Shown here in pieces: positions 5,352 to 60,668 of a DNA stretch of 64,000 nt; position 1 is the stretch's first letter, and each line of letters opens with the position of its first letter. The notes beneath the pieces are model-generated. The model ran no database searches. It was not told the origin of the DNA and saw nothing but the letters and a program-made list of their open reading frames with translations. The stretch comes from Escherichia coli (GTDB lineage Bacteria > Pseudomonadota > Gammaproteobacteria > Enterobacterales > Enterobacteriaceae), in the NCBI RefSeq assembly GCF_024298765.1, contig NZ_CP101210.1; one strand, 5' to 3'. The position numbers were made by a program, and so were the translations under genes.

Positions 5352-5358
5352 AAATGAT

Positions 5359-5391
5359 GCCCGGTTGCTTTTCACAACCGGGCATTTTTTT
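5359..5391. terminator. rho-independent terminator between convergent exbD and yghA
   Basis: Hairpin gcccggttg / caaccgggc followed by attttttt. Confidence 0.6.
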
Positions 5392-9083: not shown

Positions 9084-9201
9084 TAGGTTTATCTCTTACG
9101 GGATTACGTCTTAAACAAGCATGAAAAAATAGCGTGCGCAAAAGTCGTTCTTTGCCTAAAATATCGCTATATATGACAATATATAGCGAATGAGGTGAAC
9201 G

Positions 9202-17415: not shown

Positions 17416-19275
17416 ATGAGCAAAGGAACGACCAGCCAGGATGCCCCGTTCGGGACATTATTGGGCTACGCCCCAGGTGGGGTAGCAATCTACTCTTCAG
17501 ATTACAGTTCTCTCGATCCGCAGGAATACGAAGATGACGCCGTATTCCGTAGCTATATCGACGACGAATATATGGGCCACAAATGGCAATGCGTTGAATT
17601 TGCTCGCCGTTTTCTCTTTCTGAATTACGGTGTGGTCTTCACTGACGTGGGTATGGCGTGGGAGATTTTCTCGCTGCGCTTCCTGCGTGAAGTGGTTAAT
17701 GACAACATCCTGCCATTGCAGGCATTTCCTAACGGCTCGCCGCGTGCGCCGGTCGCGGGTGCGCTTCTTATCTGGGATAAAGGCGGTGAATTTAAAGACA
17801 CTGGTCATGTCGCCATCATTACCCAATTGCATGGCAACAAAGTCCGTATTGCGGAACAGAACGTGATTCATTCCCCGTTACCGCAAGGGCAACAGTGGAC
17901 GCGCGAGCTGGAGATGGTGGTCGAAAACGGCTGCTATACCCTTAAAGACACTTTTGATGACACCACCATTCTCGGCTGGATGATCCAGACGGAAGATACT
18001 GAATACAGCTTACCGCAGCCGGAAATTGCAGGCGAGCTGTTGAAAATCAGCGGAGCGCGCCTGGAAAACAAAGGCCAGTTTGACGGTAAATGGCTGGATG
18101 AAAAAGATCCGCTACAAAACGCCTATGTGCAGGCCAACGGTCAGGTGATCAATCAGGATCCGTATCATTACTACACCATTACCGAGAGCGCAGAGCAGGA
18201 GCTGATTAAAGCCACCAACGAACTGCACCTGATGTATCTTCACGCAACCGACAAGGTGCTGAAAGATGACAACCTGCTGGCGCTGTTCGACATCCCAAAA
18301 ATCCTCTGGCCACGTTTGCGTCTCTCCTGGCAGCGTCGCCGTCACCATATGATCACCGGTCGTATGGATTTCTGTATGGACGAACGTGGCCTGAAGGTCT
18401 ACGAATACAACGCCGACTCCGCCTCCTGTCATACCGAAGCTGGCTTGATCCTCGAACGTTGGGCGGAGCAGGGCTATAAAGGCAACGGCTTCAATCCGGC
18501 GGAAGGGCTGATTAACGAACTGGCTGGTGCCTGGAAACACAGTCGTGCACGTCCGTTTGTCCATATCATGCAGGACAAAGATATCGAGGAAAACTATCAC
18601 GCGCAGTTTATGGAGCAGGCGCTGCACCAGGCGGGCTTTGAAACGCGTATCTTGCGCGGGCTGGATGAACTGGGCTGGGATGCTGCCGGGCAACTGATTG
18701 ATGGGGAAGGGCGACTGGTTAACTGCGTGTGGAAAACCTGGGCGTGGGAAACCGCGTTTGATCAGATTCGTGAAGTTAGCGACCGTGAGTTTGCTGCGGT
18801 GCCGATCCGTACCGGTCATCCGCAAAATGAAGTGCGTCTTATCGACGTATTGCTGCGCCCGGAAGTGCTGGTCTTTGAACCTCTGTGGACAGTGATCCCC
18901 GGCAACAAAGCGATTCTGCCGATCCTCTGGTCGCTGTTCCCGCACCATCGTTACCTGCTGGATACCGATTTCTCCGTGAATGATGAACTGGTGAAAACCG
19001 GTTATGCAGTGAAACCGATCGCCGGTCGCTGTGGCAGTAACATCGACCTCGTCAGCCATCATGAAGAGGTGCTGGACAAAACCAGCGGTAAATTTGCCGA
19101 GCAGAAAAACATCTATCAGCAACTGTGGTGTTTGCCGAAAGTGGACGGTAAATACATTCAGGTATGTACCTTCACCGTTGGCGGCAACTACGGTGGGACG
19201 TGTTTGCGCGGTGATGAATCACTGGTCATCAAAAAAGAGAGTGATATTGAACCGCTAATTGTGGTGAAAGAGTAA
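17416..19275 (+). CDS. gss: bifunctional glutathionylspermidine synthetase/amidase
   Basis: 619 aa MSKGTTSQDAPFG; N-terminal CHAP amidase Cys (WQCVEFARRF). Confidence 0.9.
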   Translation: MSKGTTSQDAPFGTLLGYAPGGVAIYSSDYSSLDPQEYEDDAVFRSYIDDEYMGHKWQCVEFARRFLFLNYGVVFTDVGMAWEIFSLRFLREVVNDNILPLQAFPNGSPRAPVAGALLIWDKGGEFKDTGHVAIITQLHGNKVRIAEQNVIHSPLPQGQQWTRELEMVVENGCYTLKDTFDDTTILGWMIQTEDTEYSLPQPEIAGELLKISGARLENKGQFDGKWLDEKDPLQNAYVQANGQVINQDPYHYYTITESAEQELIKATNELHLMYLHATDKVLKDDNLLALFDIPKILWPRLRLSWQRRRHHMITGRMDFCMDERGLKVYEYNADSASCHTEAGLILERWAEQGYKGNGFNPAEGLINELAGAWKHSRARPFVHIMQDKDIEENYHAQFMEQALHQAGFETRILRGLDELGWDAAGQLIDGEGRLVNCVWKTWAWETAFDQIREVSDREFAAVPIRTGHPQNEVRLIDVLLRPEVLVFEPLWTVIPGNKAILPILWSLFPHHRYLLDTDFSVNDELVKTGYAVKPIAGRCGSNIDLVSHHEEVLDKTSGKFAEQKNIYQQLWCLPKVDGKYIQVCTFTVGGNYGGTCLRGDESLVIKKESDIEPLIVVKE

Positions 19276-19290
19276 TACATGTTGTAGCAA

Positions 19291-19325
19291 CCCCGTACTG
19301 ATTATGAAGAATAATCAGTACGGGG
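19291..19325. terminator. perfect 15-bp-stem hairpin downstream of gss (terminator candidate)
   Basis: ccccgtactgattat-gaag-ataatcagtacgggg; no strong T-run follows on + strand. Confidence 0.45.
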
Positions 19326-19566
19326 ATTAATCAAAACATTCAACGTTTATATATTTCAATATTTATTTATTTAATATATGAATATATTAACCAGTGGAAT
19401 ACCTGTGTTTTGATTATTTCTAAAGATTTTGAATGAATGCTTATTGTCTGATACACAAGAAATAACACTCTTTTTATCGTTAAAAAAAGATATTTCACTT
19501 TGCCCATGCCGTTAAAGTCACTGATAATGCGTCCGTTCGTAAATTCAAAATGGCGTAATCTAATAT

Positions 19567-21066
19567 ATGCTAAATTTATTTGTTGGCCTTGATATATACA
19601 CGGGGCTTTTGTTATTACTTGCTCTGGCATTTGTGTTGTTCTACGAAGCAATCAATGGTTTTCATGACACGGCGAATGCGGTGGCAACCGTTATTTATAC
19701 TCGAGCCATGCAGCCACAGCTTGCCGTGGTGATGGCGGCATTTTTTAACTTTTTTGGCGTATTGCTAGGCGGACTTAGCGTTGCCTATGCCATTGTCCAT
19801 ATGTTACCAACCGATTTGTTGCTGAATATGGGGTCAACTCACGGCCTGGCGATGGTCTTTTCCATGCTGCTGGCGGCGATTATCTGGAACCTGGGAACGT
19901 GGTTCTTTGGTTTACCGGCCTCCAGTTCGCATACCTTGATTGGTGCGATTATCGGCATCGGTTTAACCAACGCGCTGTTAACCGGCTCATCGGTGATGGA
20001 TGCGTTAAACCTGCGTGAAGTGACCAAAATTTTCTCCTCGCTGATTGTTTCCCCTATCGTCGGCCTGGTCATTGCGGGAGGCCTGATATTCCTGCTGCGC
20101 CGCTACTGGAGCGGGACGAAAAAGCGTGACCGTATTCACCGCATTCCGGAAGATCGCAAAAAGAAAAAAGGCAAACGGAAGCCACCATTCTGGACGCGTA
20201 TTGCGCTGATTGTTTCCGCTGCGGGCGTGGCGTTTTCGCACGGTGCTAACGACGGGCAGAAAGGGATCGGCCTGGTGATGCTGGTACTGGTGGGGATTGC
20301 CCCTGCTGGTTTCGTCGTCAATATGAATGCGTCCGGCTATGAAATTACCCGTACCCGCGATGCCGTCACCAACTTCGAACACTACCTGCAACAGCATCCT
20401 GAACTGCCGCAGAAGTTGATTGCGATGGAACCTCCATTGCCTGCGGCATCGACTGATGGCACGCAAGTAACGGAGTTTCACTGTCATCCGGCAAATACCT
20501 TTGATGCGATTGCGCGCGTTAAAACGATGCTGCCAGGCAATATGGAAAGTTACGAGCCGTTAAGCGTGAGTCAGCGCAGCCAGCTGCGCCGCATTATGCT
20601 GTGCATCTCTGATACCTCCGCGAAGCTGGCGAAACTGCCAGGCGTCAGTAAAGAAGACCAGAACCTGCTGAAAAAACTGCGCAGCGATATGTTAAGCACC
20701 ATTGAGTACGCTCCGGTGTGGATCATCATGGCAGTAGCTCTGGCGCTCGGCATTGGCACCATGATTGGCTGGCGTCGTGTAGCGATGACCATCGGTGAGA
20801 AGATTGGTAAGCGCGGCATGACGTATGCGCAAGGCATGGCGGCACAAATGACGGCGGCAGTGTCTATCGGCCTTGCCAGTTATATTGGGATGCCCGTCTC
20901 CACAACACACGTCCTCTCGTCTGCGGTAGCAGGGACGATGGTGGTGGACGGCGGTGGGTTACAGCGTAAAACGGTAACCAGCATCCTGATGGCGTGGGTG
21001 TTTACTTTACCGGCGGCGATTTTTCTTTCTGGTGGGTTGTACTGGATAGCATTGCAGTTGATTTAA
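19567..21066 (+). CDS. pitB: low-affinity inorganic phosphate transporter
   Basis: 499 aa polytopic ORF of the PiT family. Confidence 0.88.
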
Positions 21067-21077
21067 CCTTCCTGAAA

Positions 21078-21112
21078 ATGCCCGGTCCTGGCGATCGGGC
21101 ATTTCCATTTTT
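21078..21112. terminator. bidirectional terminator between convergent pitB and yghT
   Basis: atgcccg...cgggcat hairpin followed by ttccatttttg. Confidence 0.55.
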
Positions 21113-21114
21113 GA

Positions 21115-21807
21115 CTAGTGATAACCACGCGCGGTCATAAAATCCGTAATCGCTTTTTCTGCATCAACCAGCACCTTTTCCAGTGGCTGATTGGCGTCGA
21201 TATCAACCAGTTGTGCACCGCCAAAGGTTAACTGTGGCGTTATGGCAATCTTCCTCGCCAGCGATTCCCGTTTATGGTCGGGTTTACGCGCGCAGGCAAC
21301 TTCAAGGTCAACATTGAGTTTGATGACCAGATCAGGCTTATGGCTCGCCATCCAGTGAAATGCTTTACGTTCCTGGCTTGCCAGCCATGAGACAAACCGG
21401 CCGCCTTCAACGTTAGGTGGGAACACCGTACCATCGTAAGCGCCAGGAATTTGGTCCTGAGGATAACGATCGGTTAAGACAATCAGCCCGCGACGACGAC
21501 AGGCGAGCATATGACGAAAGCGTAACAGTCGGCGGGCGACGAAAGCGGTGATCACCAGGGCCGGAACCGGACCCGGCAATTTTTTTGCCGTTTTCACTTC
21601 ATTTTTTTCAATAGTCTTGTGCAGAGACTTTCCCATCAACGGTAATTTTGTCACTGCACGACCGACATTTCCGGCCTGTTTTCCTAAATGAACTCTTTCG
21701 GCAGCACCATATTTTTCGACAACGGTAATAAGATGTTCACACACCGTTGACTTGCCTGAACCATCGCTACCAATAACGGCAATTAATGGAGGTGTTATTG
21801 ACTGCAT
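21115..21807 (-). CDS. yghT: P-loop NTPase-like protein (paralog 1 of 3)
   Basis: 230 aa; Walker [10 protein letters not shown]; shares DRYPQ and ARKPDH motifs with yghS and yghR. Confidence 0.8.
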
Positions 21808-21980
21808 GAATATATCCTTAAATTTAAATATCCATCCAAAATATTTATTTGATTAATATGTTTTTATGAAAGCGTAATTCAGGTTAATGTCACAATTAAC
21901 CATTGTCACAATAAGGTTGAACGGATATTCTGAGCACGGACCACGTAATATTCAATACATTATTTGCTGCCGGGTTTTTC

Positions 21981-22694
21981 GTGAATCAACGTAATATGTC
22001 AATAATTAATTCCACGCCAGTGCGTGTTATTGCCATTGTAGGATGTGATGGTTCAGGTAAATCGACCCTCACGGCAAGCCTGGTAAATGAACTGGCAGCA
22101 ACAATGCCAACAGAACACATTTATCTCGGGCAATCGTCCGGGCGAATTGGCGAATGGATTTCACAGCTCCCTGTTATTGGCGCACCTTTTGGGCGTTATC
22201 TGCGAAGTAAAGCGGCACATGTGCACGAAAAGCCCTCCACACCACCTGGCAATATTACTGCGCTGGTTATCTATCTGCTTTCCTGCTGGCGGGCGTACAA
22301 GTTTCGCAAAATGTTGTGTAAAAGCCAGCAAGGCTATCTGCTCATCACCGACCGCTACCCGCAGGTTGAAGTGCCGGGTTTTCGCTTTGATGGCCCGCAA
22401 TTGGCAAAAACCACGGGCGGTAACGGTTGGATAAAAATGTTAAGGCAGCGCGAGCTGAAGCTGTACCAATGGATGGCGTCTTATTTGCCCGTATTGTTGA
22501 TTCGTCTTGGCATTGATGAACAAACCGCGTTTGCGCGTAAACCTGACCACCAACTGGCGGCGTTACAGGAAAAAATCGCCGTTACGCCGCAACTGACATT
22601 TAATGGCGCAAAGATCCTTGAACTGGATGGTCGGCAACCCGCCGATGAAATTCTGCAAGCGTCACTACGCGCAATTCACGCCGCGCTTTCCTGA
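21981..22694 (+). CDS. yghS: P-loop NTPase-like protein (paralog 2 of 3)
   Basis: 237 aa from GTG (ATG alternative at 21996); Walker A GCDGSGKST. Confidence 0.8.
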   Translation: MNQRNMSIINSTPVRVIAIVGCDGSGKSTLTASLVNELAATMPTEHIYLGQSSGRIGEWISQLPVIGAPFGRYLRSKAAHVHEKPSTPPGNITALVIYLLSCWRAYKFRKMLCKSQQGYLLITDRYPQVEVPGFRFDGPQLAKTTGGNGWIKMLRQRELKLYQWMASYLPVLLIRLGIDEQTAFARKPDHQLAALQEKIAVTPQLTFNGAKILELDGRQPADEILQASLRAIHAALS

Positions 22695-30852: not shown

Positions 30853-32573
30853 GCCAGGGATTCCTGCACATGAAGGCTTGCAGCATAAGCCTTCTGATAA
30901 CGTTTTTTCGCTTCCGCACGGGCAGGCTTGCCGGAGGACGTTCGGGGAATACTGTGGGGCGGCAACAGATCGATAGCCGCGGTCACGCCAAATTCGCTTT
31001 GGATCCGTGCTACCAGTGCGTGGATAAGCTGCCCACGACGTTCTTCGTCGCTGATCCGACACTGGATCTGCAAAATGATTTTTTCCTGGGCGGTAACAAA
31101 AGCAATCGCATCGCCAGAATGAATTTCCGGTTCCTGTTCCGCAATGTATTCAATATCCTGCGGCCAGATATTACGGCCACGAATAATAATCAGATCTTTA
31201 ATGCGTCCGGTGACATACAGATAACCGTCCAGCAGATAACCGAGGTCGCCGGTGTCTAACCAGCCCGTCGCGGCAATCTCGTCTTGCGAAACCTGGTCGC
31301 CAAAGTACCCGCTCATCAGGCTGGGGCCGGAGATGCAAATATGGCCTACCACACGTTCCGCGACAGGTATATCTGCTTCATTGCGGATTTCAATGCCATG
31401 TTCCGGCAACGCTTTACCGCAGTTGACGAAAGTCGATACGGCGCGTGTTTCAGCACCCGGCGCGACGGCTTTACCCTGGTATTCGAGGATGTCGCGATCC
31501 ACTTCGTTAACCACAACCCCGCAGGCTTCATCAGAGAAGCTGACAGCCAGCGCATTTTCTGCCAGTCCGTAGCACGGCATGAAAGTTTTATCGTCAAAGT
31601 TAACCTGACGAAAACATTCAGCGAATTGATGGAGTTGTTCTGCGGAGATCGGTTCTGCTCCAATACCAGCGACGCGCCAGCAGGAAAGATCCAGTTCAGC
31701 GAGATCTTTTTCATTCACGCGGCGCTGGCACAATTCATAGCCAAACGGCGGTGCAACGGAAACGGTGCCGCGATTTTTACTGATCAATTTAAGCCATTGC
31801 AGAGGACGCATGGCAAAATCCTGAGTGCGCAAATAATCTACTGAAAGCTGCGTGGCGACGGGGGTCAGGAGAAAGCCGACCAGTCCCATATCATGGTAGA
31901 AAGGCAGCCAGGAGACGCAGCGGTCGCCAGGGCGTAATTTAATGCCATCGTGGCTTATAGCACGTAGATTAGCCATCACTTCGTGATGGGTGATAATGAC
32001 GCCACGGGGAAAACGGGTGCTGCCGGAGGTGTACTGGAGGTAGGCGATATCGTTCGGAACTGGACGCTGGAGCGCAACATCGGCTTCCGGTAATGCCTTA
32101 AACCAGGCGTGGCTTAAAACATGTAATTCGGGGTTGTTGTTATGCGTCGCGGCATTGACCAGCGGTAACCACTCATCACCAGTGATAATGGCTGCGGGCT
32201 GGCAACTTGCCAGTAAACCCTGCAGTTTGGCGCTCCAGGAATCCCGCTGACCGACGCCCATTGGAATCGCCAACGGGACGGCGACTAAGCCGGCACACTG
32301 GCAGGAAAAAAAAGCCTCTACAAACCCGCTACTCGTTTCGGCAATCAGCGCCACGCGATCGCCTTTTTTCAGGTTCAGCGATAACAACCGCTTCGCACCA
32401 GCTTCGGCACGCGCTTTTAACGTCTGATATTCCAGTTGATCTTCAAGTTGGCAACGTCTGTCATAAAAATTCATTCCGGCGCTACTCAGAGCGGCGTAGT
32501 CCAAAGCATCAACCAGCGTTGGAAAATCGGCATAGCGCATAGGTAGGGAATGCGTAAAGATTTTATTAGACAT
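30849..32573 (-). CDS. fatty acyl-AMP ligase / acyl-ACP synthetase-like adenylating enzyme
   Basis: About 574 aa from ATG at 32573; YTSGSTRFPRG core motif; GRIKDLIIIRGRNIWPQDIE; stop overlaps next start. Confidence 0.7.
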   Translation of the reverse strand: MSNKIFTHSLPMRYADFPTLVDALDYAALSSAGMNFYDRRCQLEDQLEYQTLKARAEAGAKRLLSLNLKKGDRVALIAETSSGFVEAFFSCQCAGLVAVPLAIPMGVGQRDSWSAKLQGLLASCQPAAIITGDEWLPLVNAATHNNNPELHVLSHAWFKALPEADVALQRPVPNDIAYLQYTSGSTRFPRGVIITHHEVMANLRAISHDGIKLRPGDRCVSWLPFYHDMGLVGFLLTPVATQLSVDYLRTQDFAMRPLQWLKLISKNRGTVSVAPPFGYELCQRRVNEKDLAELDLSCWRVAGIGAEPISAEQLHQFAECFRQVNFDDKTFMPCYGLAENALAVSFSDEACGVVVNEVDRDILEYQGKAVAPGAETRAVSTFVNCGKALPEHGIEIRNEADIPVAERVVGHICISGPSLMSGYFGDQVSQDEIAATGWLDTGDLGYLLDGYLYVTGRIKDLIIIRGRNIWPQDIEYIAEQEPEIHSGDAIAFVTAQEKIILQIQCRISDEERRGQLIHALVARIQSEFGVTAAIDLLPPHSIPRTSSGKPARAEAKKRYQKAYAASLHVQESLA

Positions 32574-32600
32574 ATACACCACGAAAAAATTGGATATCAA

Positions 32601-32943
32601 AAATAAAATGACAATAATGCGGTGGATTATATAGGCATAAAAGATAAATGAGATAGTATTTTCATCAGTGTGAAAATGAACATTGATTTAAATAATGAGT
32701 TTGAGTTTTTTTGTTTTTATTGTGAATGATATTTAATTTATGAATATATTAAGAAGAAGCCTTGTCCGGTCGCCTTAAATCGACAAAAGGCATTGTGGCG
32801 CTTCTGTGTAGTCTCTGACCTTATCGTAATCATTAATAATACTATTTATTCGTCGTTTGTATTCATTGGGTTGATTGTTAAGGTGCCGTTCGTTGCTGTT
32901 GCAACCTGTTTGTCACCGTTAATTATTTGTTACCCACAGAACT
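32601..32943. promoter_or_regulatory. AT-rich divergent intergenic region (promoters for lipid operon and yghO)
   Basis: About 340 bp markedly AT-rich with A/T tracts, flanked by divergent start codons. Confidence 0.5.
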
Positions 32944-34086
32944 ATGGAATGCGATCTGCTGATGATTAAAATTGAAAAAGTAATTAATAAAAATGACCTT
33001 AAGGCATTTATCGCTTTTCCGTCATCACTTTATCCCGACGATCCAAACTGGATACCCCCTTTATTCATTGAACGCAACGAGCATTTGTCTGCGAAAAATC
33101 CGGGGACGGACCATATCATCTGGCAGGCGTGGGTGGCAAAAAAAGCGGGGCAGATAGTTGGGCGTATTACCGCGCAAATCGATACCTTGCACCGCGAGCG
33201 TTACGGCAAAGATACCGGTCATTTCGGCATGATTGACGCCATTGATGATCCGCAGGTTTTTGCCGCGTTGTTTGGCGCAGCGGAAGCGTGGTTGAAGTCA
33301 CAAGGTGCAAGTAAGATCAGCGGTCCTTTCAGCCTGAATATCAATCAGGAAAGCGGATTACTGATTGAAGGTTTCGATACACCACCCAGTGCGATGATGC
33401 CACACGGTAAACCGTGGTATGCCGCGCATATTGAACAACTGGGTTATCACAAAGGCATTGATTTACTGGCGTGGTGGATGCAGCGAACCGATCTCACTTT
33501 CTCTCCGGCGCTAAAAAAACTGATGGATCAGGTGCGCAAAAAAGTGACCATTCGCTGCATCAATCGCCAGCGGTTTGCCGAAGAGATACAGATCCTGCGT
33601 GAGATTTTCAATTCTGGCTGGCAGCACAACTGGGGATTTGTGCCGTTTACCGAACATGAATTCGCGACCATGGGCGATCAACTTAAATATCTGGTGCCGG
33701 ACGATATGATCTACATCGCTGAGATTGATTCTGCACCCTGCGCGTTTATTGTTGGCTTGCCGAACATCAACGAGGCGATTGCCGATCTGAACGGATCGCT
33801 CTTTCCCTTCGGCTGGGCAAAATTGCTGTGGCGTTTGAAAGTCAGCGGTGTGCGAACTGCGCGAGTGCCGCTGATGGGCGTGCGGGACGAGTATCAGTTC
33901 AGCCGCATCGGCCCGGTAATTGCGCTGTTATTGATTGAAGCCTTACGCGATCCGTTTGCCCGTCGGAAGATCGATGCGCTGGAGATGTCATGGATCCTCG
34001 AAACCAATACAGGCATGAATAACATGCTGGAACGCATTGGGGCGGAGCCGTACAAGCGTTACCGATTGTATGAAAAGCAGATTTGA
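32944..34086 (+). CDS. yghO: GNAT-fold acyltransferase-like protein (uninterrupted reading frame)
   Basis: 380-aa ORF from ATG 32944 (alternative ATG 32962); divergent from lipid operon. Confidence 0.65.
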   Translation: MECDLLMIKIEKVINKNDLKAFIAFPSSLYPDDPNWIPPLFIERNEHLSAKNPGTDHIIWQAWVAKKAGQIVGRITAQIDTLHRERYGKDTGHFGMIDAIDDPQVFAALFGAAEAWLKSQGASKISGPFSLNINQESGLLIEGFDTPPSAMMPHGKPWYAAHIEQLGYHKGIDLLAWWMQRTDLTFSPALKKLMDQVRKKVTIRCINRQRFAEEIQILREIFNSGWQHNWGFVPFTEHEFATMGDQLKYLVPDDMIYIAEIDSAPCAFIVGLPNINEAIADLNGSLFPFGWAKLLWRLKVSGVRTARVPLMGVRDEYQFSRIGPVIALLLIEALRDPFARRKIDALEMSWILETNTGMNNMLERIGAEPYKRYRLYEKQI

Positions 34087-41850: not shown

Positions 41851-43533
41851 ATGGTTACCTGGACCCAAATGTATATGCCGATGGGAGGACTGGGGCTATC
41901 CGCTCTGGTCGCCCTGATCCCAATAATATTCTTCTTCGTTGCACTCGCGGTATTACGTCTGAAAGGACATGTCGCTGGAGCAATAACCCTTATATTATCT
42001 ATTCTGATTGCGATATTCGCCTTTAAAATGCCGATTGATATGGCATTTGCTGCTGCGGGCTATGGCTTTATTTATGGTTTATGGCCTATTGCGTGGATTA
42101 TTGTCGCGGCGGTATTCCTGTATAAATTAACCGTTGCCAGCGGCCAGTTCGATATTATCCGCAGCTCGGTTATCTCCATCACCGACGATCAGCGTTTGCA
42201 GGTGTTACTGATTGGTTTCTCCTTTGGTGCGCTGCTGGAAGGGGCGGCTGGCTTTGGCGCGCCGGTGGCGATTACCGGTGCGCTGCTGGTGGGCCTGGGC
42301 TTCAAACCGTTATACGCGGCGGGGCTGTGTCTGATTGCCAATACTGCGCCGGTGGCGTTTGGTGCGTTGGGCGTGCCGATTCTGGTCGCCGGTCAGGTAA
42401 CGGGAATCGATCCGTTCCACATTGGCGCAATGGCGGGACGTCAGTTACCGTTCCTGTCGGTTCTTGTACCGTTCTGGCTGGTAGCAATGATGGACGGCTG
42501 GAAAGGGGTGAAAGAGACGTGGCCAGCGGCGCTGGTTGCTGGGGGAAGCTTCGCTGTCACGCAGTTCTTTACCTCTAACTATATTGGTCCGGAACTGCCG
42601 GATATTACTTCGGCGCTGGTGAGTATCGTCTCACTCGCTTTATTCCTTAAAGTCTGGCGGCCGAAAAATACCGAAACGGCAATCAGCATGGGACAATCCG
42701 CAGGAGCGATGGTGGTGAATAAACCATCTTCTGGCGGTCCCGTGCCTTCAGAATATAGTCTGGGGCAAATCATTCGTGCGTGGTCACCGTTTTTAATCTT
42801 AACGGTGCTGGTCACCATCTGGACCATGAAGCCGTTTAAAGCGTTATTTGCTCCGGGCGGCGCGTTTTATTCACTGGTGATTAATTTCCAGATCCCTCAT
42901 TTGCATCAACAAGTGTTGAAAGCGGCACCCATTGTCGCCCAACCAACGCCAATGGATGCGGTGTTTAAATTCGACCCTCTCTCGGCTGGCGGCACCGCTA
43001 TTTTTATTGCGGCGATTATCTCTATCTTCATCCTCGGCGTGGGCATCAAGAAAGGGATTGGCGTCTTTGCCGAAACGCTAATTAGTCTGAAGTGGCCGAT
43101 ATTGTCGATTGGCATGGTGCTGGCGTTCGCCTTCGTCACCAACTATTCCGGTATGTCCACCACGCTGGCGCTGGTACTGGCAGGTACAGGCGTGATGTTC
43201 CCGTTCTTTTCGCCATTCCTCGGCTGGCTGGGGGTATTCCTTACCGGCTCGGACACCTCCTCTAACGCCCTGTTTGGTTCACTGCAATCGACCACGGCGC
43301 AGCAAATCAACGTCTCTGACACACTGCTGGTGGCAGCAAATACCAGCGGCGGCGTAACTGGCAAGATGATCTCCCCGCAATCTATCGCCGTGGCCTGCGC
43401 CGCGACGGGCATGGTGGGCCGGGAATCTGAACTGTTCCGCTACACCGTGAAGCACAGTCTGATTTTTGCCAGCGTTATCGGCATTATCACGCTGTTGCAG
43501 GCGTATGTGTTTACTGGGATGTTAGTCTCGTAA
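41851..43533 (+). CDS. glcA: glycolate/lactate permease
   Basis: 560 aa polytopic LctP-family ORF. Confidence 0.88.
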
Positions 43534-43542
43534 ATCAATAAT

Positions 43543-43575
43543 GCCGGATGATCGTTAATATCATCCGGCTTCATT
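43543..43575 (+). terminator. rho-independent terminator downstream of glcA
   Basis: gccggatgat...atcatccggc hairpin followed by T-rich stretch. Confidence 0.5.
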
Positions 43576-60502: not shown

Positions 60503-60615
60503 AGTATCAGGAGATTAATATCAATAAAATTACTCTCGTTAACGTGGCGAGAGTAATTCCCCCAGACTTTATAAGCTAATTTTTTTCGTGAAGGTTATTG
60601 TCAGAGCCAAAAGCA

Positions 60616-60645
60616 AAAACCCGCCTTGTGGCGGGTTCTTAAGAA
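60616..60645 (-). terminator. rho-independent terminator (minus strand)
   Basis: cccgcc-ttgt-ggcggg stem-loop; on the minus strand it is followed by tttttgctttt. Confidence 0.6.
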
Positions 60646-60649
60646 TTAG

Positions 60650-60668
60650 TGGTGCCCGGACTCGGAAT
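60650..60668 (-). other. 19-nt tRNA-Phe 3'-end fragment (att-site direct-repeat remnant; island boundary)
   Basis: tggtgcccggactcggaat equals reverse complement of tRNA-Phe 3' end (...ATTCCGAGTCCGGGCACCA); no full tRNA present. Confidence 0.7.

Follow-up and report, generated by a model that had tools for sequence, protein, structure and literature searches.

A perfect stem-loop without a U-tract at the mapped 3′ end of the gss mRNA in Escherichia coli

In Escherichia coli, the gene gss is followed by a perfect palindrome and then by strongly AT-rich DNA that extends to pitB. The locus raises the question of what a long hairpin does at the end of a gene when no T-run follows it, and what kind of DNA separates that hairpin from the next gene. 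The initial annotation of the 64,000-nucleotide stretch of E. coli DNA analyzed here (contig NZ_CP101210.1; hereafter, the window) recorded the hairpin, proposed a processing or RNase-protective element, and regarded the AT-rich DNA as a pitB leader.

The gene labels used in that description are correct, on the basis of a match to NF007801 (1281 bits) for gss and the RefSeq E. coli annotation of 19567-21066 for pitB. A query of 451 nt around the hairpin is matched in 5,414 of 5,426 complete E. coli genomes, with the flanks annotated as gss and pitB. The gene order in K-12, on the minus strand, is yghU, gss, pitB, the same as in the window. The elements on the gss side of the locus are listed below.

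17416..19275 (alternative start 17413), + strand: gss coding sequence, bifunctional glutathionylspermidine synthetase/amidase (NF007801)
19276..19290, + strand: spacer from the gss stop codon to the hairpin, 15 nt, invariant in Escherichia except for single changes
19291..19305, + strand: 5′ arm of the hairpin, CCCCGTACTGATTAT, with five G-C pairs at the base
19306..19310, + strand: hairpin loop, GAAGA
19311..19325, + strand: 3′ arm of the hairpin, ATAATCAGTACGGGG, with pairing kept in natural variants
19325..19334, + strand: interval in which gss mRNA 3′ ends map by SMRT-Cappable-seq and TRS, tail AUUAAUCAA

The hairpin harbors 15 perfect pairs and a 5-nt loop at 19291-19325 and starts 16 nt past the gss stop codon (19273-19275), so the perfect 15-bp stem first described after gss is present in the sequence. 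The span of 19291-19566 originally assigned to the feature is too long for the hairpin proper, which stops at 19325, while 19566 is the final base before the pitB ATG. The fold-energy check suggested at the outset gives −27.3 kcal/mol for the hairpin RNA, compared with −9.0 ± 2.5 kcal/mol for shuffled sequences (z −7.2), and none of 200 shuffles folds as well. The fold is retained when the sequence is extended by 140 nt into the upstream coding region. Among the perfect short-loop hairpins of the 64-kb window, the one after gss is the longest, with 15 bp against 11 bp for the runner-up, and a perfect hairpin of 15 bp is found in none of 100 Markov shuffles, in which the maximum is 13 bp. The hairpin is strong and is not due to chance. 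Next in length are the perfect short-loop hairpins at window positions 9164-9189, 5357-5385, and 60528-60558, each with an 11-bp stem.

The sequence following the stem does not resemble that of a canonical terminator. The first 8 nt 3′ of the stem are ATTAATCA, in which three of eight bases are T and the first is A. The tail AUUAAUCA is thus not a U-tract, and the published TRS table gives a maximum U-tract of 3. A terminator scan makes no call at the hairpin site on either strand, in agreement with the original view that the + strand lacks a T-run and that the element is not a canonical terminator. The RNA:DNA hybrid formed by the tail is weak, at −6.0 kcal/mol against a window mean of −10.5 kcal/mol, placing it among the weakest 3.7% of the 8-mers in the window. 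In an Rfam search at a permissive threshold, no match reaches its gathering score; the best is rli38, on the − strand, with 32.7 bits against 49.

The position at which the gss mRNA ends can be read from published maps of K-12. The hairpin and the first 11 nt of its tail are identical in K-12 MG1655, and the K-12 3′-end maps therefore apply to the hairpin of the window (window position = 3155938 − K-12 coordinate). SMRT-Cappable-seq, the sequencing of full-length 5′-triphosphate transcripts (Yan et al. 2018, PMC6131387), reports a unit at 3136609-3138610 on the reverse strand that contains b2988 (gss) alone and is labeled “novelTTS”. In M9, 120 reads of this unit start from the TSS; 76 stop at the TTS, 6 run beyond it, and 3 stop within 50 bp; on a second sheet, the corresponding counts are 35, 26, 0, and 1 (PMC6131387). 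The TTS at 3136609 converts to window position 19329, 4 nt past the stem. The published TSS converts to 17328, which lies 7 nt downstream of a TATGAT box.

The TRS data set (PMC10687069) gives a “Primary” gss 3′ terminus at 3136604-3136613 with a signal of 0.97, prints the gss hairpin, and assigns a 3′UTR of 58 nt. Its peak at 3136606 converts to 19332/19333 (+7/+8 from the stem) and the cluster to 19325-19334. The two K-12 maps thus place the 3′ ends of the gss mRNA 4-8 nt past the stem, with longer molecules amounting to at most about 10%. The mapping of RNA 3′ ends downstream of gss, originally proposed as a check, is therefore positive at +4 to +8, and the outcome that was to count against the element, read-through with no 3′ end at the hairpin, is not what the maps show. 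In contrast, the Term-seq and Rho tables of Adams et al. 2021 (PMC7815308) contain no entry for gss or pitB, and none at K-12 31361xx-31368xx. That study also lacks the end that two other methods detect, and its silence is therefore read as a limit of coverage and is uninformative; gss expression may be too low under the conditions used.

Taken together, the hairpin very probably marks the 3′ end of the gss mRNA. On the basis of the ends mapped at the hairpin and the scarcity of longer molecules, gss is monocistronic and pitB is insulated from gss transcription.

Natural variation indicates that the stem is maintained as RNA. Identity over the 49 nt around the hairpin is 99% or higher in 4,035 E. 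coli genomes, 95-99% in 1,291, and 90-95% in 76. Pairing was tallied over nine Escherichia haplotypes, comprising the fetched E. coli variants, E. albertii, and one cryptic-clade genome; 97.8% of the stem cells are paired, and three cells are unpaired. At pair 10, a C to T change yields G.U. In O157:H7, a C to T change at pair 1 and an A to G change at pair 12 both yield U.G, and in E. albertii an A to G change at pair 9 also yields U.G. Pair 6 provides a compensatory series in which U-A is the common state, U.G occurs in strain G5, and C-G occurs in strains Survcare321 and MLI114. One-sided variation is therefore found at four pairs, to G.U only, and compensatory change at one pair. The structure is preserved in six of seven substitution events (one-sided binomial p ~0.06, with small counts).

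In the + strand RNA, the one-sided changes form G.U pairs; RNA of the opposite strand would have C.A at these positions. This asymmetry agrees with a sense 3′ end and argues against a DNA-level or antisense role. As judged from these few substitutions (p ~0.06), the stem appears to be selected as an RNA structure of the + strand. E. albertii has retained the hairpin, and its tail, AGCAUGUC, is neither U-rich nor A/U-rich; the hybrid has an ordinary stability of about −10.5 by the same table.

Insertions are also found at the locus. Strain 360D-1 carries an IS1 within the 3′ arm of the hairpin after ATAATCAG, equivalent to window position 19318/19319, and strain E1 carries a second, independent IS1 in the AT-rich tract at the equivalent of window position ~19391. 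In about 224 of the 5,414 matched genomes, the match extends over less than 80% of the 451 nt, and spacer disruptions are therefore not rare.

Comparison with other genera was based on the best 80 gss loci from 80 species, a set without E. coli, Shigella, E. fergusonii, and S. enterica subsp. enterica; within Escherichia, the comparison comprised E. albertii, one cryptic-clade genome, and the E. coli genome collection. Among the fetched gss loci, the gss to pitB adjacency is restricted to Escherichia. In the remaining genera, the gss stop codon is where similarity to the window ends, at the nucleotide as well as the protein level, while the upstream neighbor yghU is conserved. The junction 19275/19276 is thus a synteny breakpoint across Enterobacteriaceae, beyond which the genes differ by genus and have no relatives in the 64-kb window. 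As read from ORF translations, they are pgaDCB-like in Enterobacter, thioredoxin-like in some Citrobacter, chemoreceptor-like in S. diarizonae, and an aminotransferase in Klebsiella.

A strong hairpin (−13 kcal/mol or lower) is found within 90 nt past the stop codon in all 79 gss orthologue loci. A T-run follows the hairpin in at least 37 of 80 gss loci (about half), a lower bound because the stem-plus-T-run scan misses terminators with imperfect stems; the remainder, including all Escherichia, have none. In three Citrobacter species, the hairpin base reads CCCC(G/T)...GGGG at a similar offset and is followed by the T-rich tails TTATTTGA, TTGTATGT, and TTTTAAC. Judging by this short resemblance, which BLAST does not extend, these hairpins are possibly homologous to that of Escherichia. 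It has been proposed that 3′ stem-loops interchange between an intrinsic and a U-less form as the number of uridines following the stem changes (Dar and Sorek 2018, PMC6061677), and the mix of T-run and U-less hairpins after gss matches this proposal. Separately, 63 nt at window positions 60607-60668 are 89% identical to C. werkmanii sequence at +68 to +128 after gss, in a second hairpin region, and the two stretches may share a terminator-like or repeat sequence.

How the gss 3′ end is made is a separate question. The favoured reading, which is given an even chance of describing the main route, is that of a protective 3′ stem-loop without a U-tract, generated by trimming after termination further downstream. 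The hairpin would form the 3′-terminal stem-loop of the monocistronic gss mRNA, where it would fix and stabilize the end and keep gss transcription from pitB. Given the missing U-tract, most polymerases are thought not to be efficiently released at the hairpin. They would instead stop inside the ~240 nt of untranslated, unstructured AT-rich spacer downstream, with Rho as the likely stopping agent, possibly helped by NusG or H-NS. Some weak hairpin-driven release at the A/U-only tail may occur in addition. The 3′-to-5′ exonucleases PNPase and RNase II would then trim the tails back until the hairpin blocks further trimming. Of the original proposal of a processing or RNase-protective element, the part concerning a 3′-end element agrees with the mapped ends, while the protective role belongs to the favoured reading and shares its even chance.

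A class of protective stem-loops lacking a U-tract has been described where Rho-dependent transcripts of E. coli end (Dar and Sorek 2018, PMC6061677). The gss hairpin resembles this class in that a stable stem-loop without a U-tract lies just upstream of a precise steady-state 3′ end, the RNA downstream is untranslated, and the element, which is not a REP, occurs only once in the genome. Unlike members of the class, the gss locus lacks C-over-G enrichment in the downstream RNA, and its 15 perfect pairs exceed a typical terminator stem; moreover, Rho dependence and exonuclease trimming are only inferred for it.

The spacer itself is consistent with this route in part. The RNA after the hairpin has no significant structure by RNA folding (z −1.3). 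However, C and G account for only 9.3% and 6.7% of 19326-19400, with 4 YC dimers, and for 14% and 12% of 19326-19566; with RNA this poor in C, no good rut site is visible, which counts against the Rho route. The Rho table of PMC7815308 lists no bicyclomycin-sensitive region at K-12 31361xx-31368xx, where gss transcripts may be too scarce. A search for the high-affinity H-NS motif TCGWTWAATT gives no match within the spacer and no enrichment across the window, although H-NS binding is still compatible with the sequence.

The strongest alternative is that the hairpin is a non-canonical, factor-independent terminator, in which the long stem and the A/U-only tail release the RNA at +4 to +8 without Rho, and exonuclease protection is a by-product. 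This alternative is a serious but less probable contender. The five G-C pairs at the stem base lie next to the tail, the tail hybrid is among the weakest in the window, and about 90% or more of the transcripts reaching the site end there. The weak hybrid and the location of the ends, where an intrinsic terminator would release its RNA, mean that direct termination fits these data equally well. No Rho region is called at the locus, the downstream RNA is C-poor, and the Citrobacter hairpins with a like base at the same offset have T-rich tails. In intrinsic terminators, however, the proximal U residues matter most, and with only three U residues among the eight tail bases and A as the first, a high termination efficiency is unexpected here. 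Also weighing against direct termination are the silence of the consensus terminator scan at the site, the ordinary hybrid stability of the tail in E. albertii, which keeps its hairpin all the same, and the shortness of the Citrobacter likeness, which BLAST does not extend.

Relative to a canonical intrinsic terminator, the gss hairpin shares the G-C-rich stem base, a 3′ end 4-8 nt after the stem, and low read-through in vivo, but it lacks both the 7-8 nt U-tract and an upstream A-tract. Canonical terminators stand at the same place after gss in many other Enterobacteriaceae. The most demanding form of the proposal is that of an efficient, factor-independent terminator that lacks a U-tract and releases ~90% of polymerases by means of a long G-C-based stem and a weak A/U-only hybrid; it is rather doubtful.

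Two further readings assign the palindrome a role other than that of the gss 3′ end, and both are unlikely. In the first, the palindrome acts as DNA, either as an operator to which a dimeric regulator of pitB or gss would bind or as a target for recombination or insertion, marking the point at which lineage-specific DNA enters 3′ of gss. The perfect 35-bp palindrome, the synteny breakpoint in the gss 3′ flank with other genes in each genus examined, and the IS1 inside the 3′ arm in strain 360D-1 would be in keeping with such a role. However, the substitutions are asymmetric, breaking the DNA symmetry while giving G.U in the + strand RNA; the palindrome lies 175 bp upstream of the pitB −35 box; its sequence is unique in the genome with no plasmid or phage copies; and RNA 3′ ends map exactly at it. 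As IS1 is also present in the AT-rich spacer of another strain, AT-richness alone explains the insertions, and a DNA-level function is improbable. Least probable of all is a terminator or 3′ end of an opposite-strand transcript, or part of a spacer small RNA: the palindrome folds equally on both strands and has weak Rfam matches on the − strand (rli38, as above), but all of these fall below the gathering score, the SMRT-Cappable-seq and TRS tables have no opposite-strand TSS or 3′ end at the site, and the − strand tail is UUGCUACA, with the natural variants becoming C.A mismatches there.

The hairpin does not belong to a repeat family. It occupies one locus per genome across 5,402 E. coli genomes, and only its two arms match each other within the window; the median of two “places” per E. 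coli genome arises because the palindrome matches both strands in BLAST. Like the REP/BIME stabilizers of mRNA 3′ ends, it is a palindrome that lies between genes, where an mRNA ends, and might block exonucleases. Unlike them, it is found at a single locus and has no REP consensus. A mobile-element origin is likewise not supported, as neither the hairpin nor the AT-rich spacer has a homologue in the plasmid and phage collections and foreign matches are confined to query positions 207-283. The Klebsiella match to this interval that was fetched is pitA upstream sequence in a record mislabeled as a plasmid.

Downstream of the hairpin, the DNA up to and including pitB is divided as follows.

19334..19439, no strand assigned: junction spacer, GC ~20%, fast-evolving, RNA unstructured, IS1 target in strain E1
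19440..19466, no strand assigned: conserved Escherichia block, CTTATTGTCTGATAC..AAGAAATAAC, absent upstream of pitA
19478..19566, + strand: pitB core promoter and short 5′UTR, pitA-homologous, with A-tract, −35, and −10; TSS predicted near 19535
19567..21066, + strand: pitB coding sequence, 499 aa, 81% identity to K-12 PitA, NCBIfam PitA-family transporter, RefSeq E. coli annotation

The strong AT-richness noted over some 240 bp ahead of pitB is real: GC is 20-25% in 100-nt windows over 19300-19500, and the bin 19251-19500, at 27.2% GC, is the lowest 250-nt bin of the window. The gss-pitB spacer is equalled in AT-richness by two other stretches, 32501-33000 and 43501-44000, whose 250-nt bins have 28% GC. 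The junction spacer, in which 19346-19377 consists of 2.1 copies of a 16-nt unit, is poorly conserved even between Escherichia species. No homologue of it was found 3′ of gss in the fetched loci outside Escherichia or in the plasmid and phage collections. A 94-aa ORF with a TTG start lies on the − strand at 19367-19651, in the poorly conserved spacer, and overlaps the pitB start. The block at 19440-19466 (CTTATTGTCTGATACACAAGAAATAAC) is kept in E. coli, Escherichia sp. MOD1, and E. albertii amid the fast-evolving spacer and may be bound by a pitB-specific regulator.

The promoter scan places a −35 element, TTGCCC, at 19500-19505 and a −10 element, GATAAT, at 19523-19528, with the 17-nt spacing of a sigma-70/sigma-S type promoter, such that the predicted pitB 5′UTR is only ~30 nt. 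The promoter region is perfectly conserved in E. coli, Escherichia sp. MOD1, and E. albertii, and the promoter/5′UTR at window positions 19482-19558 is 83-84% identical to Klebsiella and Salmonella sequence. The fetched Klebsiella copy sits between a yhiN-like oxidoreductase gene and uspB, which is the position of pitA in E. coli. Some of the matches to the pitB promoter are chromosomal Klebsiella or Salmonella sequence filed in plasmid and phage collections. Compared with the pitA promoters of E. coli and Klebsiella, the A-tract, TTGCCC, GATAAT, and most of the 5′UTR align. However, the homology ends ~90 bp 5′ of the ATG, and the AT-rich 150 bp and the block at 19440-19466 are present only on the pitB side.

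The designation “pitB leader” is therefore not appropriate, as the −35 and −10 elements shared with pitA lie at 19500-19528 and 19334-19480 is poorly conserved DNA upstream of the promoter. The AT-rich tract is lineage-specific junction DNA together with a pitA-derived core promoter and is not a regulatory leader. The 81% identity of PitB to PitA and the shared ~90 bp upstream indicate that pitB arose from a pitA-like copy with its own promoter. In Escherichia, this pitA-like copy lies downstream of the gss hairpin, with orphan AT-rich DNA between them.

In SELEX with the sigma-S holoenzyme, a peak is reported for the pitB-gsp spacer (PMC5493296). For the pitB transcript start, no TU end is listed at 31363xx-31365xx in the M9 and rich-medium SMRT-Cappable-seq tables, and pitB may be silent under these conditions. 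Control of pitB by PhoB was considered and set aside: the most recent published ChIP-seq/RNA-seq reassessment finds neither binding nor regulation of pitB by PhoB. The gene appears to be dispensable; it is annotated as a pseudogene in several lineages, being frameshifted in 2015C-3101 and truncated in O157:H7 (NADC 5570) and in G5.

A transcriptionally silent protein-occupancy domain (tsEPOD) described as the “pitB locus” was replaced by Bryant et al. 2014, with printed coordinates of 3131588-3133385. Assuming that these refer to the earlier MG1655 record (+1,977 bp), the domain converts to ~3133565-3135362 of NC_000913.3 and to window positions ~20576-22373. By the converted coordinates, it covers yghS, yghT, and the pitB 3′ end, and the gss-pitB spacer is ruled out as part of it. 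The divergent yghT-yghS spacer at 21751-22000 has only 34% GC.

The gss hairpin is a real, selected, and ordinary element whose 3′ end is already present in two public 3′-end tables. Its value lies mainly in annotation, in that gss can be recorded as a single-gene transcription unit with a 58-nt 3′UTR, and that pitB has a promoter of its own, derived from pitA. It is also a clean natural case in which a 3′ stem-loop has undergone compensatory change through G.U pairs inside a single species. The sole question of any breadth is whether this hairpin can terminate transcription efficiently despite lacking a U-tract. If termination here is efficient and Rho-free, the hairpin would be a useful substrate for terminator biochemistry, and if it is a U-tract-less terminator, it would provide a natural test case for the minimum uridine needed by E. 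coli RNAP. Across Enterobacteriaceae, the end of this one gene alternates between U-tract and U-less hairpins.
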